Positions 1,673 through 7,509 of a stretch of DNA of 64,000 nucleotides are shown one piece after another. The stretch spans positions 960,001-1,024,000 of the forward strand of contig CP186953.1 of assembly GCA_049570475.1 (NCBI GenBank), in the 5' to 3' direction. The stretch is from Candidatus Methanosuratincola verstraetei (GTDB lineage Archaea > Thermoproteota > Methanomethylicia > Methanomethylicales > Methanomethylicaceae). Under the pieces are notes generated by a model. The model was not told the origin of the DNA and searched no databases. It worked only from the letters and a program-made list of their open reading frames with translations. Both the position numbers and the translations under genes were made by a program. Numbering within the stretch: position 1 is the first letter of the stretch; every line of letters starts with the position of its first letter.

Positions 1673-2497
1673 ATGGACAATGATTTGAGAAGGGAGCTGA
1701 TCCAGAAATCTCCAATAACCATGGAAAGCCTCAGGAAATTGAACATTGGTGCGGGGATCCTCCACTTGGTGCAGGGGATGCTCATGCTTACTTTGGGGAC
1801 ACTTTTGACATGGGAGCGGGACATTTACACCTTTTACCTCAAGTTCGAAGTAATGCCTTCTACCCCTCCAGTCTTCAAGGTTGTGCCGAATCCTCAGGTC
1901 GCTTTCACAATCACGTATCTGGGGGCATTGCTGGCGTCGTTCTTGCTGATCTCTGCAGCGGCCCACATGATTATCGCATTCGCAAAGAAAAATCAATACG
2001 CTGAATACCTAAAACGAGGGATGAACCCATATCGTTGGTATGAGTATGCCTTCTCAAGCTCGATCATGCTTGTGATCTTGGCGACATTCGTCGGGGTTTG
2101 GGAGTTGTGGTCACTCGTCATGATCTTCGTACTGAACGCAATGATGATAATGTTCGGTTACCTGATGGAGAAGATCAACCAGTTTACGAAGAAGATTGAC
2201 TGGTCTCCATATCTGTTGGGCTGCATCTCTGGCTTCACCCCGTGGGTGGTCATAGCTGCTTACTTTGTCGCCGCCCTGAACTCAACTGGCACAAGCCCGC
2301 CGACATTTGTCTATTTAGTTCTCGTACTGTATTTCGTGATGTTCAACACATTCTCCATCAACATGATCCTCCAATACAAGGGGATCGGCAAGTGGAAAGA
2401 CTACCTCCACGGCGAGAGAGTCTACATTTTACTGAGCCTGGTAGCAAAAACAATCTTGGCTTGGCTGGTTTTCATCGGCATATTTGCGCCATTCTAA
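1673..2497 (+). CDS. heR: Heliorhodopsin
   Basis: 7 TM; LNIGAGILHLVQG, SAAAH, NPYRWYEYAFSSSIM, NMILQYKGIGKWKDYLHGERVYILLSLVAK (retinal-binding Lys in SLVAK). Confidence 0.95.
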   Translation: MDNDLRRELIQKSPITMESLRKLNIGAGILHLVQGMLMLTLGTLLTWERDIYTFYLKFEVMPSTPPVFKVVPNPQVAFTITYLGALLASFLLISAAAHMIIAFAKKNQYAEYLKRGMNPYRWYEYAFSSSIMLVILATFVGVWELWSLVMIFVLNAMMIMFGYLMEKINQFTKKIDWSPYLLGCISGFTPWVVIAAYFVAALNSTGTSPPTFVYLVLVLYFVMFNTFSINMILQYKGIGKWKDYLHGERVYILLSLVAKTILAWLVFIGIFAPF

Positions 2498-2599: not shown

Positions 2600-2944
2600 T
2601 TGACGACCACGTTCTCGGTAAACTCGCCCCGATGCGATCAAAGGACCCAGATCATCGCAGAGAAAGTCGGTTCTGCGATCAAAATAAGTCTGAACACGAC
2701 CTGCCCGAGAGTCAAAGCGTATGGGGAGTCCCTTTGCGAAATCGGGATAAATGAGTTGGCACAACCAATACTTAAGAACCCGATTTATGTAGTGGCCTCC
2801 TCGAAACTCGGCCCTGAGTGCGTCGTTCCATGCGCAGTTGTATCTGCTGCCTGGACCGAGGCTGGCATGGTCGCAAGGAGCATCCTCAACCGCTTCCCAA
2901 GCACCTGCTTCACCTACGAAGGATCATCGAGCAACAAATTGTGA
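2600..2944 (+). CDS. Small Cys-containing conserved protein (DUF6951-like)
   Basis: Pattern C...TTCPRV...NPIY...CVVPCAVVSAAWTEAGM resembles DUF6951 proteins of anaerobes; TTG start. Confidence 0.6.
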   Translation: MTTTFSVNSPRCDQRTQIIAEKVGSAIKISLNTTCPRVKAYGESLCEIGINELAQPILKNPIYVVASSKLGPECVVPCAVVSAAWTEAGMVARSILNRFPSTCFTYEGSSSNKL

Positions 2945-3049
2945 AAGTGCATTGAAAGCACTTTCGAATTTTAGCCCGTTTTTATTAAAAGAATGCCCTC
3001 ACGCGAAAAGTAAAATAGAAACGCTCAGCAATAATTAATGGGTATAAAA

Positions 3050-3397
3050 ATGGTAAACTTAGTTTCCGTAATAATCAACCTAGTCGTGAGCATAATTATC
3101 CTGTCTCCGGTGCTCTGGCTTGTAGGCAGGTGGCTTGCCGGAAAAGACAAGGCCAAGTTCACCGATGCTATTTGGATCGTAGTGATTGGGACCATTGTAG
3201 ACGCGGTATTCGGCTACTTCGATTTAGGGCTGATTGGCGCCATAATTATGATAATAATATGGCTTGCGCTGATCAAGCACTTCTTCGACTGCGGGTGGCT
3301 CAGGGCACTACTGGTCGCTATAGTGACCGTTGTGGTCTTTATAATCATCGGCATAGTATTGGCTTTACTCGGCTTTGCGCTTTTGGCAATAATTTAA
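3050..3397 (+). CDS. Small integral membrane protein (about 4 TM), unknown function
   Basis: Very hydrophobic ORF with KAKFTDA and KHFFDCGWLRAL loops. Confidence 0.75.
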   Translation: MVNLVSVIINLVVSIIILSPVLWLVGRWLAGKDKAKFTDAIWIVVIGTIVDAVFGYFDLGLIGAIIMIIIWLALIKHFFDCGWLRALLVAIVTVVVFIIIGIVLALLGFALLAII

Positions 3398-3623
3398 ACA
3401 TTTTTTATTTCTTCCTTTGAACCTCAAGCACTTCGTGAATGCTTGTCGGGACTAACATGACACCATTAATAAAAGGGTAAGCAAGTTCGGTCACGTCAGT
3501 GAGAACCATTAACTAAGAAATTATTGGTTTACCGTTTTAAAATGTTTGAGAAAAATCTCTTTATGCACGCTGCCTCTTTCAGGGCAGTCAATCCATGATG
3601 AAAAATGAAAAATATTGTTTTTG

Positions 3624-5198
3624 CTATCTGTGGTGGTGCTCTGGAATGCAATATCTGCATCCATCAAAGCCTGCAGTAAGGGCCTCTTCGAGGTCACAGA
3701 AATAGACCCTGTTCCTGATTGCAATCCTATGGGCCCACTCGCAATCCTTCTTATGGACCTCCATGTGCTCGGGAGACTTGTTTGCAATATATGGCGCATA
3801 TGCCCCTATTCCTGAAGTCTCTATGTTTGCGGCGACCAGGGCTTCTGGCTCATCGATGAATAGCTTGGTAAATGCAGCCTTGACTTTCACCGTGGTCCCC
3901 GGCAGGCTCTCTTCAATGACCGCAGGGAGGAGCACGATCGGCGGCAAGTTCTCGACTATCCTGTCTATGAGCCAGTTGACAAAATAGTTAAGCAGGAACT
4001 CGGGTATTTCCCAGTCGAGCGGTATGGAGAGGTCCAGATCAAGTATGTCAACGGCTAGCTGATTCTTGTCGTCCAAGTAAACTTTTGCAGAAGCCGAGTC
4101 GATGTTGATGACTAGGTTGTTTACAGATAGGCTGAATATCTCCCCTGTGTAGGTCTCTGTGTCGACGTCCCAGATCCCCCAGAAAAGGGAGGTGGTGGTC
4201 TGTATCGTGACTAGCGCCCTCATCCAAGCATCGATTGAGACGCTCCCTGCGATCTCGACAACATTGCCAGGCTTCAGGTCAAAGTCAAACTTGCTGAACC
4301 TTATTGTTGCCCCGAACTCCGCCCAGACCCGCTTAATGTCTATCTCAGTGCTGACCAAACCAAGCGTGCAGGCAGCCACCACCCAGTCGGCTAGCTCGTC
4401 CAGCCAGTCAACAATCGAGGGCATGTCAAAGTCGTGGCTACCCGTTTTCGTGATTGACTTTGGATGCGTTGTCCTGTCCCACCAGAAATCATATACTTTG
4501 TGCATTGCCCCTTCGTTGACGCCTATGCCGATATGGCTCCCGTCCGTGAAGTCCAAGACCGAGTTGATGTCGCCGCCATTGTATCCAAGCAGGTTGACTG
4601 CGACACACAGTGTGGAAGGGTTCAAGACGCGGAAATTCCCCAGTCCAATGGTGAGCTTGTTCTCCTCCCCTGGCGGCATGTTCGGGAGCTCCGTGGCGAA
4701 TAAGACCGGGCTCAACTCCAGGGTGGTGAGATCTTCCGTCAAGTACTCGTGCATTGCTATAGTCAATATCTCGTTCAGCCTAGCGATCACATTGGTTGGT
4801 AGGTGATAGGTGTCATTCAACTCTACGTCGTCAATGCTGGCTGTCAATAGATCTATCTTAAGCCTGCGTGTTGCCTGATCGAATGACGGGGCGACCCCAA
4901 CGGTGAATTCGACTTCGATCTCAAACTTGATGCCCCCGAGCACAGTGAACTTCGCCTGCCCCCTCACATTCATGCGCAAGTGCAAATCGGCCGTGGCCTC
5001 GATAGTCGGGGGCTTTGGGAGGGACACCTCATAGCCTATCACTGTAAACTCCTTCAGGCTTTCTGGCACGTTCGGTATGGGGAGCGTGTAGGTCCCCTTT
5101 AGAACAGGGAAGGCGCCGATGCAATGGCCAATCTTCATGAACTTGTTCAGGAGCTCTTCCCTTACCTCCAAAACAACGTCGTATCCTCCCGTCTGCAT
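3624..5198 (-). CDS. Two-domain TULIP/BPI-like protein with C-terminal Ada-type metal-binding domain
   Basis: Likely start ATG 5198 overlapping the upstream stop (TAATG); internal duplication GYDVVLEVREELLNKF / GSHIGIGVNEGAMHKV; C-terminus YIANK..EVHKKDCEWAHRI...EEALTAGFDGCRYCIP. Confidence 0.65.
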   Translation of the reverse strand: MQTGGYDVVLEVREELLNKFMKIGHCIGAFPVLKGTYTLPIPNVPESLKEFTVIGYEVSLPKPPTIEATADLHLRMNVRGQAKFTVLGGIKFEIEVEFTVGVAPSFDQATRRLKIDLLTASIDDVELNDTYHLPTNVIARLNEILTIAMHEYLTEDLTTLELSPVLFATELPNMPPGEENKLTIGLGNFRVLNPSTLCVAVNLLGYNGGDINSVLDFTDGSHIGIGVNEGAMHKVYDFWWDRTTHPKSITKTGSHDFDMPSIVDWLDELADWVVAACTLGLVSTEIDIKRVWAEFGATIRFSKFDFDLKPGNVVEIAGSVSIDAWMRALVTIQTTTSLFWGIWDVDTETYTGEIFSLSVNNLVINIDSASAKVYLDDKNQLAVDILDLDLSIPLDWEIPEFLLNYFVNWLIDRIVENLPPIVLLPAVIEESLPGTTVKVKAAFTKLFIDEPEALVAANIETSGIGAYAPYIANKSPEHMEVHKKDCEWAHRIAIRNRVYFCDLEEALTAGFDGCRYCIPEHHHR

Positions 5199-5563
5199 TA
5201 GCCCCCGCCCCCGAGCGACTTTTCGCACTTTCCCGTCTCCTTGTTTATGTGAACATGTATCTTCAATGGCTTGCCTTCCAAAACCCGTTTCAAGTACCAA
5301 TTCTTGGCCTCTGGTCTTTTCTTGACGATCTCCCTCAGGTCCGCCCTCACCTTAGAGTTCAGCCTCTCCATCACCCTGTCTATAAAAGCGCTGTCTACCT
5401 TGATCCCCACCTCTTTTATGGTGCCCTGGAAATCCTCTTTCAGACGTTCCTCCAGCGAAGGGTCAACAGCCATACGCTTCCTTATTTGTTCCAGCTCTGG
5501 CAAATCTAATCCATGTAAAGCATTTTTATCTATCCTCTTTTTTTTCAATAATGGCACTACCAA
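5198..5563 (-). CDS. Small helical protein with an NHLP-leader-like segment
   Basis: LEQIRKRMAVDPSLEERLKEDFQGTIKEVGIKV resembles the ..RA..DP.F..RL..DP...L.E.G motif; translationally coupled to the downstream gene. Confidence 0.55.
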   Translation of the reverse strand: MVVPLLKKKRIDKNALHGLDLPELEQIRKRMAVDPSLEERLKEDFQGTIKEVGIKVDSAFIDRVMERLNSKVRADLREIVKKRPEAKNWYLKRVLEGKPLKIHVHINKETGKCEKSLGGGG

Positions 5564-5798
5564 AAAGTTCTAACTATTAACTAACGGGAATGTTATTTAA
5601 GTGTTCCCGTTCTACAGATGAACAAAATATGCCGTGAACGACTAGATCCTGAATGGCTTTTACCGAGCGGACCTGATCCTTGGATTTGGTCTCTTGGTGC
5701 CCTTCCCTAGAACCGGGGCCTATTTCGCTCGTTTTCTGTTGGAACCTTCCGGAAAGATCCTATAAACAAAAGAAATGGAATAAATAAAAAGGGTGCCT

Positions 5799-6473
5799 TT
5801 ACCAGGCACTCGACGGATCCTGCTTCAGCTTCGCCACTAGATCTTTCGTTACGCCAACTGCTGCTGAGGCATCGTGAGGCCTTGCGTCTGCGCCTATCGA
5901 TAGTGCCCACTCCTCAGTAACTGGGCCGCCTCCGACGATTATCTTGACCTTGTTCCTGACCCCTGCTTGGGCGAACATGTCGATTACTTTCTTCATCGCC
6001 GGCATTGTTGTGCTCATCAGTGCAGACATCCCTACTACTTCTGCCTTGTTGTCCTTTGCAGTCTCCAGGAACTTAGCCAGTGGCACATCCTTGCCTAGGT
6101 CGATCACGTTGAACCCAGCAGCGCTGAGCATTATCTTGACCAAGTTCTTGCCTATGTCATGGATGTCTCCTTCTACCACTCCGAGGACGACTTTCGCAGG
6201 CACAGTGGTCTTGTCAGCCTTCATGTGTGGCGTAAGCACTTCCACAGCCGCGTTAAGCGCATTTGCAGAGCATAGGACCTCAGGGACGAAGTACTCCTTC
6301 TTCTCATACTTCTGGTTCACTACACTCATTGCATCGCCGCCGTACTTGGTCACGAGTTCATATGCGTCCAGTTTCGCCGCGACCGCTTCGTTCGCCCACT
6401 TGGCAGCTGCCGCTTCGTCACCATCGACTATGGCCTTTACAAATCCATTTATGATTTCCTCTTTAGTTGCCAT
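5799..6473 (-). CDS. Methyltransferase cognate corrinoid protein (MtsB/MtaC/MtbC family)
   Basis: B12 motif EGDIHDIGKNLV...SALMSTT...IIVGGGP; cap domain EYFVPEVL; GAGGTG RBS before ATG 6473. Confidence 0.93.
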   Translation of the reverse strand: MATKEEIINGFVKAIVDGDEAAAAKWANEAVAAKLDAYELVTKYGGDAMSVVNQKYEKKEYFVPEVLCSANALNAAVEVLTPHMKADKTTVPAKVVLGVVEGDIHDIGKNLVKIMLSAAGFNVIDLGKDVPLAKFLETAKDNKAEVVGMSALMSTTMPAMKKVIDMFAQAGVRNKVKIIVGGGPVTEEWALSIGADARPHDASAAVGVTKDLVAKLKQDPSSAW

Positions 6474-6483
6474 CTCTAACACC

Positions 6484-7509
6484 TCACACATAAACCATGC
6501 ATCTAGCTACTTCGACCAACGCCTTGAAGTTCGCAGTTGGAGTCCTCGGAGGTATTCCGCAGGAGGGCATCAGCACATCAACGCCCTTCTTTATCGCGTC
6601 GATCGCCGCCTCCCTAACCTTCTGAGGCGTGCCGAATAGGAGCGCAGTAATCGTTGGCACTCCTCCGACTATGGCTATCTTGTCGCCAACTATGGCCTTT
6701 GCGAATGCGGGATCAACTTGCGCGTCAATCGAGAATGCGTCAAATCCGGTGTCAGCTATATACGGCAGATAAGCTGAAGTGTTGCCGCATATGTGAAGCA
6801 CGACTGGCGCCCCGATCTTCTTGGCCATGTTCTGGTAGACTGGGATCATCACGTCCCTGAAGAACTGTGGCGACAGGATGTCCGAAGTCGCCGAGGGATC
6901 TGCGATGCAGATCACATCCGCTCCGCTCTGTAGTGCCTTCTTGCAGTCATCAATGTTCATCTCGGATATCTGCATCAGCGCCTCCTTGACCTCCTCCTGT
7001 GGTCTCTTCTTGGTCCATATGCAGAACTTCTCGATCCCGAAGATGTGCCCGGCAATAGTGAAAGGTCCCGTAACTTGGTTGATAATTGGCAGGTAGTCGC
7101 CATACTCCTTCCTGAGCATCTCCTCGACCCTGTGCTTCAGCGGGAATCTTCCGGTCTCAGTGATGTTCTCTGGAATCTTGAGGTCCTTCAGGTCGTTGAA
7201 AGCATGCGTCTCTACGCTTGGGTGCCTGTCTATCCTTCCCCAGTTGATCTTGCATCCAAATGCCTCTGCTTCAACACAGAGATCGAAAGGCAGTTTGAAA
7301 CCCTCTAGCCCTATTACTTCCCAGGCGGCGGCTGCGAGCTTGAAAGCAAGCTGCGGATCCCTGTTTGCCTCAGGGAACGGCGCATTCACCGCATTCATCT
7401 GATCGACTGTTGCAGTGGTCAGTGTATCCATGCAGCTTATCCTGTCTGCTCGCCTTTTGTTGCCTGTGACACAAAGAAGGGCTCGTTTTCGCGGCGTCAT
7501 TTCAGCCAT
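6484..7509 (-). CDS. Methylcobamide:CoM methyltransferase (MtaA/MtsA, UroD fold)
   Basis: MTPRKR start, PFDLCVEAEAFG, GPFTIAGH, ADPSATSD, Zn ligands HICG and PSCG. Confidence 0.9.
   Translation of the reverse strand: MAEMTPRKRALLCVTGNKRRADRISCMDTLTTATVDQMNAVNAPFPEANRDPQLAFKLAAAAWEVIGLEGFKLPFDLCVEAEAFGCKINWGRIDRHPSVETHAFNDLKDLKIPENITETGRFPLKHRVEEMLRKEYGDYLPIINQVTGPFTIAGHIFGIEKFCIWTKKRPQEEVKEALMQISEMNIDDCKKALQSGADVICIADPSATSDILSPQFFRDVMIPVYQNMAKKIGAPVVLHICGNTSAYLPYIADTGFDAFSIDAQVDPAFAKAIVGDKIAIVGGVPTITALLFGTPQKVREAAIDAIKKGVDVLMPSCGIPPRTPTANFKALVEVARCMVYV

Follow-up and report, generated by a model that had tools for sequence, protein, structure and literature searches.

The window analysed here, a 64,000-nucleotide stretch (assembly GCA_049570475.1, contig CP186953.1, positions 960,001 to 1,024,000), comes from Candidatus Methanosuratincola verstraetei, an anaerobic methyl-reducing methanogen, and carries two co-oriented genes on its minus strand that overlap by a single base and encode a large acidic protein and a small basic one. 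The large protein is predicted to fold as a double TULIP of the BPI type, similar to P47 and OrfX, followed by a small zinc domain, and structural modelling supports the binding of the small protein to it. The reading preferred here, held with moderate confidence, is that this translationally coupled operon would give rise to a cytoplasmic heterocomplex built around the double TULIP; the probable task of the double TULIP is to bind a hydrophobic ligand, for example a lipid, and to shuttle it.

The assignment of the fold comes from two structural comparisons of an AlphaFold2 (AF2) model of the large protein. The model was built on 28 homologues and reached a predicted local distance difference test (pLDDT) value of 82.6 and a predicted template modelling (pTM) score of 0.73, with residues 271-282 as the sole disordered stretch. 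It consists of two units with the order helix, long curved sheet, helix, followed by a small C-terminal domain, and it displays the features by which a BPI-type double TULIP is recognised, namely a helix wrapped by a curved antiparallel sheet and two such domains placed back to back. A Foldseek search of the PDB matched the model to BPI (E-value 2.1e-14), LBP (7e-13), CETP (1.6e-12), P47 (8e-10), OrfX3 (2e-9) and OrfX2 (9e-7), with a probability of 1.00 for all six. VIA-align, which is independent of Foldseek, superposed residues 1 to ~465 on P47 (Z 11.8), BPI (11.2), CETP (10.8), OrfX3 (10.1) and OrfX2 (9.9), and the next unrelated structures scored Z ~6. With the same program, proteins made of a single TULIP aligned to one or the other half of the model: YceB to residues 1-202 (Z 6.8), and Der p 7/Der f 7 together with JHBP-type proteins to residues 225-428. 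Because Foldseek (about 1e-9 to 1e-14) and VIA-align (Z 10-12) agree, the fold call is taken to be right, and it bears out the two-domain TULIP/BPI fold with P47/OrfX2 resemblance that an earlier note on this DNA, made by a model from the letters alone, had proposed. The same note had seen two similar halves in the protein. The halves are alike in fold; the motif pairs quoted for them have no statistical support, and an internal duplication, for which a comparison of the two halves by hhalign gave a probability of 3%, was rejected as unsupported by sequence.

At the level of sequence profiles the relationship leaves few traces. None of the 28 family members matched PF01273 or PF02886 (LBP/BPI/CETP) in Pfam, nor was a secretion signal found in the large protein, and in a viral structure library no TULIP relative was found, the zinc domain alone giving a match. 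Three members of the large-protein family matched DUF1439/YceB weakly (best E 0.008). To judge from sequence comparison, the large gene is real: its homologues form 56 clusters with 36-69% identity, nearly all of them 518-532 amino acids (aa) long apart from four fragments, and no Pfam domain was found in these clusters. Scans of both proteins against Pfam, NCBIfam, PADLOC and PHROGs gave no significant match. The large protein is acidic, as noted earlier, with a computed isoelectric point (pI) of 4.67 and a charge of -34. Its highest hydropathy over 19 residues is 1.46, and it therefore has no transmembrane segment; the hydropathy profile showed no signal-like N-terminus either, in line with the earlier description of a protein devoid of a signal peptide. 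The best-conserved motif, GVNExAMHxVYDFWWxRTTHPKS, spans residues 225-248, and its W240 is found in 98% of distant relatives. Residues E229, H233 and D237 of the motif are invariant in close relatives and conserved in less than 75% of the broad family; as a universal active site they were accordingly rejected.

The C-terminus of the large protein resembles the N-terminal domain of Ada. Residues 463-520 were superposed by VIA-align on the methylated N-Ada/DNA complex 1u8b with Z 6.7 and a root-mean-square deviation of 2.1 Å over 55 aligned residues (20% identity). The four putative ligands H482, C486, C514 and C517, arranged with the spacing of the N-Ada fold (x3 / ~26 / x2), are invariant in the 28 homologues and also in 22 aligned members, which agrees with the Ada-type zinc finger that had been read from the H-C-C-C pattern at the C-terminus. 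A profile of the domain, with an E-value that is weak when taken alone (0.09), places C486, C514 and C517 on C42, C69 and C72 of Ada, and H482 thus takes the position of Cys38. In Ada, Cys38 is the methyl acceptor. The corresponding residue is His in 28/28 and 22/22 aligned members, so that the nucleophilic cysteine is missing. The domain is predicted to be a structural zinc module, and because His replaces Cys38 a role as methyl acceptor is improbable. The zinc domain itself lies below the Pfam and NCBIfam thresholds. The PF02805 gathering threshold was not reached by any of the 28 members (best E 0.1, in one of them), and the link to PF02805 is transitive: the profile of the whole family also picks up numerous proteins that contain the zinc domain between one and six times and that in Pfam bear the names Ada_Zn_binding (1e-33) or DUF6233, and the NCBIfam 'sunset' domain NF051437 is a weak relative. 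Within the family, the domain is kept in 39 of 48 representatives, down to ~20% identity, and about nine of the 48, all distant members, are devoid of it.

The His-first variant of this Ada-like domain is mobile. Arrays of 3-6 copies occur in other proteins (profile matches P0157, P0171, P0172 and P0181), and some proteins that contain CarboxypepD_reg or VWA domains end in this zinc domain. In addition, a stand-alone 64-aa phage protein (BFVD A0A3G8F8S9) matches it with 42% identity and a template modelling score of 0.74.

The second line of evidence concerns the association of the two genes. In 27 loci, a hidden Markov model of the small protein located the partner gene directly upstream of the TULIP gene, the two genes overlapping by 1 or 4 nucleotides (nt) or standing no more than 17 nt apart. 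These loci belong to Methanosuratincola, Bathyarchaeia, Methanoperedens, Methanothrix, Methanosarcinaceae, Methanomicrobiaceae, Methanocalculus, Methanospirillum, Methanocellaceae and one metagenome-assembled genome (MAG) of Clostridiaceae. A quick tree search with 31 large proteins, which yielded an unrooted polytomy, showed that the partner-bearing loci are exactly those of one clade, clade A (Shimodaira-Hasegawa-like approximate likelihood ratio test, 97). In the sister clade B, which comprises Archaeoglobi, a second Methanoperedens paralogue, Nitrososphaerota and Bathyarchaeota MAGs, Dehalococcoidia and Anaerolineae/Chloroflexia, the partner gene was found upstream in none of ten loci. The coupling to a small upstream gene claimed in the earlier note is supported by this distribution, the two genes being adjacent in the clade A loci. 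Two other arrangements were observed in clade B. In a Nitrososphaerota MAG and in Methanoperedens (L028:3710-4951 and L029:2739-3899), an open reading frame (ORF) of 387-414 aa overlaps the end of the TULIP gene; it has no Pfam match, looks conserved between the two loci and may be an alternative partner. In Anaerolineae and Chloroflexia MAGs (L039:262-3586 and L041:3950-7442), two TULIP-zinc genes lie in tandem with a head-to-tail overlap.

The binding of the partner to the large protein is supported by co-folding of the pair, a check that the earlier note had suggested. The interface score ipSAE was 0.73 (median of three runs), compared with 0.00 for the best of three controls. Of the solved complexes, 58 of 80 score this high, as do 2 of 110 mismatched pairs, a calibration that is only rough given that custom alignments served as input. 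The runs had at least 47% of their contacts in common, and the pLDDT of the partner, at least 66, rose from 67 for the protein alone to 80-81 in the complex. The contacts with the lowest predicted error join partner residues 97-102 (PLKIHV) to large-protein residues 389-393. In the co-fold, the hairpin of the partner extends the C-terminal TULIP sheet at its edge by one strand, at large-protein residues 384-394, and its helices cover the helix and loop at residues 259-291, part of which is disordered when the large protein is modelled alone, as well as helix 400-415. Charge is matched at the interface, the receiving strand being rich in Asp in clade A and bearing Lys in clade B.

The charges of the two proteins are opposite throughout the pairs that were compared. 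The pI of the small protein is 9.8 in the window and 9.7-10.2 in four orthologues from different orders; the large proteins of five such pairs, which are predicted to be cytoplasmic, have a pI of 4.1-4.7 and charges of -27 to -61. A nucleic-acid-associated sensor or regulator has to be considered here, in which the zinc domain and the K/R-rich small protein would bind DNA or RNA and the TULIP would sense a hydrophobic molecule. That the sole characterised relatives of the zinc domain (the Ada N-domain, 1u8b and 1adn) bind the DNA backbone, that the related 'sunset' domain is attached to ribosomal proteins in NCBIfam models and that the small protein is so basic all speak for it, but the charge of the large protein would be unfavourable beside nucleic acid, and the basic hairpin is predicted to be buried on the acidic TULIP strand rather than free. 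Moreover, a helix-turn-helix or other DNA-reading domain was found in neither protein, and the zinc domain itself is dispensed with in the distant members mentioned above. Such a sensor is therefore unlikely, and the coupling of its ligand state to gene expression or nucleoid function is no more probable.

The small partner, for which 44 homologues were found, is modelled by AF2 as a set of helices followed by a C-terminal beta-hairpin (pLDDT 67), a fold that had no match in the PDB (best Foldseek E 2.2). The earlier note had called it NHLP-leader-like. According to this interpretation, the small gene would encode the precursor or leader of an NHLP-type ribosomally synthesised and post-translationally modified peptide, and the large protein would take part in its maturation or export. 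A faint match to the NHLP-clan model (E 0.033, residues 21-61) does exist, and the window's copy ends in GGGG, but the match, seen in only 2 of 31 members of the small family, reaches 14 bits against a cut-off of 40, most orthologues end otherwise (REEE, PEVKK, IKIK and others), and no core peptide follows the tail. In the window and at five other loci, no maturase, radical-SAM, cyclodehydratase or C39-peptidase transporter gene was found near the pair. The codons of the tail have another role. A purine-rich site (GGAGG, GAGGTGA or GGGGG) is located 5-12 nt before the start of the large gene and recurs at that position across 23 related loci, and because this site is kept while the encoded tail changes, the tail codons are taken to be the ribosome-binding site of the large gene. 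With a sub-threshold match, an unconserved tail that serves as a ribosome-binding site and no maturases nearby, the leader label was rejected, and hardly any credence is left to it.

How the heterocomplex would work can be proposed from its parts. All TULIP families characterised so far bind lipids or other hydrophobic ligands (PMC5507252, PMC6791001), and for this reason the tube of the double TULIP is expected to carry a hydrophobic cargo, for which an isoprenoid ether lipid, a polyprenol or another hydrophobic cofactor of anaerobes would be candidates. The basic partner would act as an adapter. By analogy with TipB, which clamps and opens TipA (10.1101/2025.09.09.675085), it may gate or open the C-terminal TULIP; it may also bridge the acidic carrier to the anionic surface of the membrane. 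The zinc domain could be the module that docks onto a protein or onto a surface bearing phosphate. The cargo is what separates this proposal from a scaffold or chaperone that would offer an elongated acidic platform to the basic partner, to other proteins or to hydrophobic peptides and hold no small molecule. The 225-248 motif with W239 and W240 could be purely structural and the partner seems to fold upon binding, both as a platform would have it, but the ligand binding common to the characterised TULIP families and a tube architecture kept down to 20% identity, which fits a conserved cavity, make a cargo-free platform quite unlikely.

Several points weigh against a hydrophobic-ligand shuttle. 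A common fold is no proof of a common function, and the co-fold is an expression of model confidence rather than a measurement. The conservation of the interface in clade A relative to clade B is 0.17, compared with 0.10-0.13 for the rest of the protein, which is a small difference. The neighbourhood of the pair is not conserved and gives no clue to a pathway. Finally, archaea of this kind have, to our knowledge, no internal membranes, and the purpose of a cytoplasmic lipid shuttle in them is not obvious.

The organisation of the locus is that of a translationally coupled pair of genes (Table 1). The TAATG overlap described earlier is present, the TAA of the small gene having one base in common with the ATG of the large gene. 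The upstream gene had been given as 121 aa, which is correct for the longest ORF; the product is probably 116 aa, as initiation at a TTG at 5548 is preferred because it matches the 116-aa orthologues of the same genus, whose N-terminus is MKKTKVDKN. A GTG at 5557 is also possible. Both flanks are AT-rich, as had been remarked: the G+C content is 0.42 there and 0.52-0.54 inside both genes, the latter equal to that of the neighbourhood. These flanks are ordinary intergenic promoter and terminator regions and show no island signature. Ahead of the gene pair lies an AT-rich spacer of 235 nt that contains TATA-like elements, and a hairpin followed by a T-run lies at 5793-5809, 3' of the upstream corrinoid-protein gene. 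Together with the T5 runs beyond the large gene, the spacer and the upstream hairpin make the pair look like a self-contained operon. A scan for bacterial-type promoters and terminators was uninformative, the host being an archaeon.

Table 1. Coordinates of the gene pair, its predicted protein domains and its putative expression signals (positions within the window)
Feature	Position	Strand	Details and basis
Large gene	3624-5198	-	ATG at 5198, TAG stop 3624-3626, 524 aa; ORF and translation
Small basic partner gene	5198-5563	-	Longest ORF from TTG 5563, 121 aa; TAA stop 5198-5200
N-terminal TULIP domain (predicted)	4545-5198	-	Residues ~1-218; secondary-structure order and full-length alignment to BPI, CETP and P47
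C-terminal TULIP domain (predicted)	3813-4544	-	Residues ~219-462, holds the 225-248 motif; structural alignments
Ada-N-like zinc domain (predicted)	3627-3812	-	Residues 463-524, ligands H482, C486, C514, C517; VIA-align and HMM alignment
Acidic edge strand and loop	3999-4049	-	Large-protein residues 384-400, AVDILDLDLSIPLDWEI; predicted by the co-fold to receive the partner hairpin
Partner hairpin, strand one	5246-5269	-	PLKIHVHI, residues 97-104 of the 119-aa form; predicted added strand on the C-terminal TULIP sheet
Shine-Dalgarno-like site of the large gene	5201-5212	-	GGGGGCGGGGGC, also codes the partner's GGGG tail; sequence, conserved site in related loci
AT-rich promoter region (putative)	5571-5600	-	TATA-like TTAAATAA (5593-5600) and TTAATAGTTA (5571-5580), 25-50 nt upstream of the candidate starts; sequence reading
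Likely archaeal oligo-T terminator	3601-3612	-	Two T5 runs, 12-25 nt past the stop codon; sequence reading

The distribution of the pair points to an accessory module. The window's genome, a single 1.52-Mb contig that is 97% complete, was compared with 59 other genomes of the same class, seven from the same genus, 22 from the rest of the family and 30 from outside the family. The TULIP gene was found in six of the seven genomes of the genus, one split copy and one remnant included, whereas 0 of the 22 and 0 of the 30 others sampled had it. Its nearest relatives outside the genus, with 63-69% identity of the large protein, are found in Bathyarchaeia and Methanosarcinales. Since within the class the gene is found only in the window's genus, the pair was probably acquired horizontally by the genus as an accessory element. 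The acquired two-gene module that the earlier note had suggested is supported by this restriction and by nearest relatives in other phyla; the donor lineage cannot be named from an unrooted polytomy. By the sequence record, the pair is decaying in some lineages of the genus. In one same-genus genome (G022:C6:38858-40427) the TULIP gene is broken into two frames that overlap, and in another (G031:C2:305450-305533) a 28-residue TULIP remnant with a TGA was observed.

The genes that flank the pair differ in every one of the five distant loci examined, and are either housekeeping genes or of no assigned family. No neighbourhood was conserved around the pair in these loci, and the pair therefore travels as a self-contained module. 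In the window, the genes directly upstream (5799-7509, minus strand) encode a corrinoid (B12-binding) protein and a URO-D/MtaA-like methyltransferase, which are typical genes of methyl-reducing methanogenesis and are not conserved beside the TULIP pair elsewhere. On the other side, and convergent to the operon, lie a heliorhodopsin gene (1673-2497, plus strand; Pfam 1e-91), a DUF6951 gene (2600-2944, plus strand) and a family-less ORF of 119 aa (3038-3397, plus strand). The heliorhodopsin block is not conserved beside the operon outside the genus.

These neighbourhoods bear on the possibility of a module that, like BPI or P47/OrfX, perturbs membranes or serves in conflict, where the TULIP would attack or remodel foreign membranes and the small protein would be its inhibitor or chaperone until release; the membranes of competitors or of enveloped archaeal viruses would be the targets. 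Its closest structural matches (BPI, P47, OrfX2 and OrfX3), a patchy and horizontally spread distribution with decay in some genomes of the genus, and a tight two-gene architecture like that of toxin-immunity pairs would fit such a module. Nevertheless, no toxin, NTNH or phage gene was found near the pair in the window or at the five other loci, a signal peptide or a secretion system was likewise not found, and the neighbours are housekeeping genes. Further, PADLOC and PHROGs gave no match, and a zinc domain with cysteine ligands speaks for life in the cytoplasm. A conflict role, with whatever targets, is thus very unlikely, and the toxin-like reading of the earlier note lost its ground with no toxin gene nearby and no secretion signal.

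In eukaryotes, TULIP proteins are lipid carriers of central importance. Those described to date from prokaryotes are, as far as we know, bacterial, and either extracytoplasmic or toxin-linked (YceB, P47/OrfX, TipA). Against this background, a conserved double TULIP that has no signal peptide, bears a zinc domain and comes with a dedicated partner fills a gap in the prokaryotic TULIP record. Two surveys of TULIP proteins make no mention of archaea (PMC5507252, PMC6791001), and among 14 classes of lipid-transfer proteins another survey, from 2025-26, found only three in archaea, BPI not being one of them (10.1101/2025.05.16.653879). A search of the searchable full-text literature for an archaeal TULIP or BPI returned nothing relevant. 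This supports the impression of the earlier note that such a module is not known from archaea, and within that literature the family, a cytosolic, zinc-domain-bearing double TULIP with its own adapter, is undescribed. It has been invisible to annotation because no Pfam, NCBIfam or InterPro-type model covers it.

A more far-reaching version of the shuttle reading can be put forward tentatively. The pair could represent the first archaeal intracellular lipid-transfer system on the BPI/CETP fold, a shuttle gated and targeted to the membrane by its adapter and anchored by its zinc domain. It is possible, if doubtful, that isoprenoid ether lipids, or else a hydrophobic cofactor, are carried by this shuttle between the cytoplasmic membrane on one side and cytosolic enzymes or assembly sites at the cell surface on the other. 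With the same reserve, gene transfer may have distributed the system over methanogens, Bathyarchaeia, Archaeoglobi and a small number of anaerobic bacteria. If this were true, the back-to-back double TULIP of BPI and CETP would exist outside eukaryotes in a cytosolic form. The question raised is which hydrophobic cargo needs a soluble carrier in cells with a single ether-lipid membrane. Cultured hosts include Methanospirillum stamsii and Methanocalculus chunghsingensis, to which Methanosuratincola petrocarbonis can be added if the isolate carries the pair, and with the family present in cultured strains the cargo question is directly testable.

Comparison with known systems places each part of the pair. 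The zinc domain has its small fold in common with the Ada N-domain (PF02805; 1adn, 1eyf, 1u8b), to which NF051437 and DUF6233 are related, and both carry the signature EAxxxGYxxCxxC. The ligands are spaced x3 / x27 / x2 in the archaeal domain and x3 / x26 / x2 in Ada. The archaeal domain differs in having His as the first ligand, where Ada has the methyl-accepting Cys38, and in its location at the C-terminus of a TULIP protein instead of on a transcription factor or methyltransferase. With BPI, LBP and CETP (1bp1, 1ewf, 4m4d, 2obd) the large protein is predicted to have the double-TULIP fold in common, at a sequence identity of only 8-12% and with no match to the Pfam LBP_BPI_CETP models. Proteins of the BPI family are secreted, whereas the archaeal protein has no signal peptide; unlike BPI and CETP, it also has a C-terminal zinc domain, an obligate-looking small partner gene and a prokaryotic host.

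P47 and OrfX2/OrfX3 (6ekt, 5wix, 8fbd, 8bgm, 9arl) are bacterial double TULIPs, and P47 is the top match of VIA-align. OrfX3, too, has a small protein of its own cluster as complex partner (OrfX1-OrfX3, 8fbd, 8bgm). In contrast to the archaeal protein, the zinc domain is missing from P47/OrfX, no relation exists at the sequence level, and the membership in a toxin cluster is not shared, ntnh and toxin neighbours being absent from the window and the five other loci. The archaeal partner, made of helices and a hairpin, has no detectable fold match. The other system of this kind is TipA/TipB of Bdellovibrio (bd2538/bd2539), where an operonic BPI-like double TULIP is joined by a small adapter that clamps the edge of the TULIP sheet and opens the fold, TipB being a C2-like beta-sandwich on the N-terminal TULIP of a periplasmic or secreted homodimer (bioRxiv 10.1101/2025.09.09.675085). 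No homology between the archaeal pair and TipA/TipB was detected, and unlike TipB, the archaeal partner is basic, consists of helices and a hairpin and is predicted to sit on the C-terminal TULIP of a cytoplasmic protein. In conclusion, the operonic coupling is common to both systems, and for the mechanism of the interface predicted in the archaeal pair, TipA/TipB offers the closest model.

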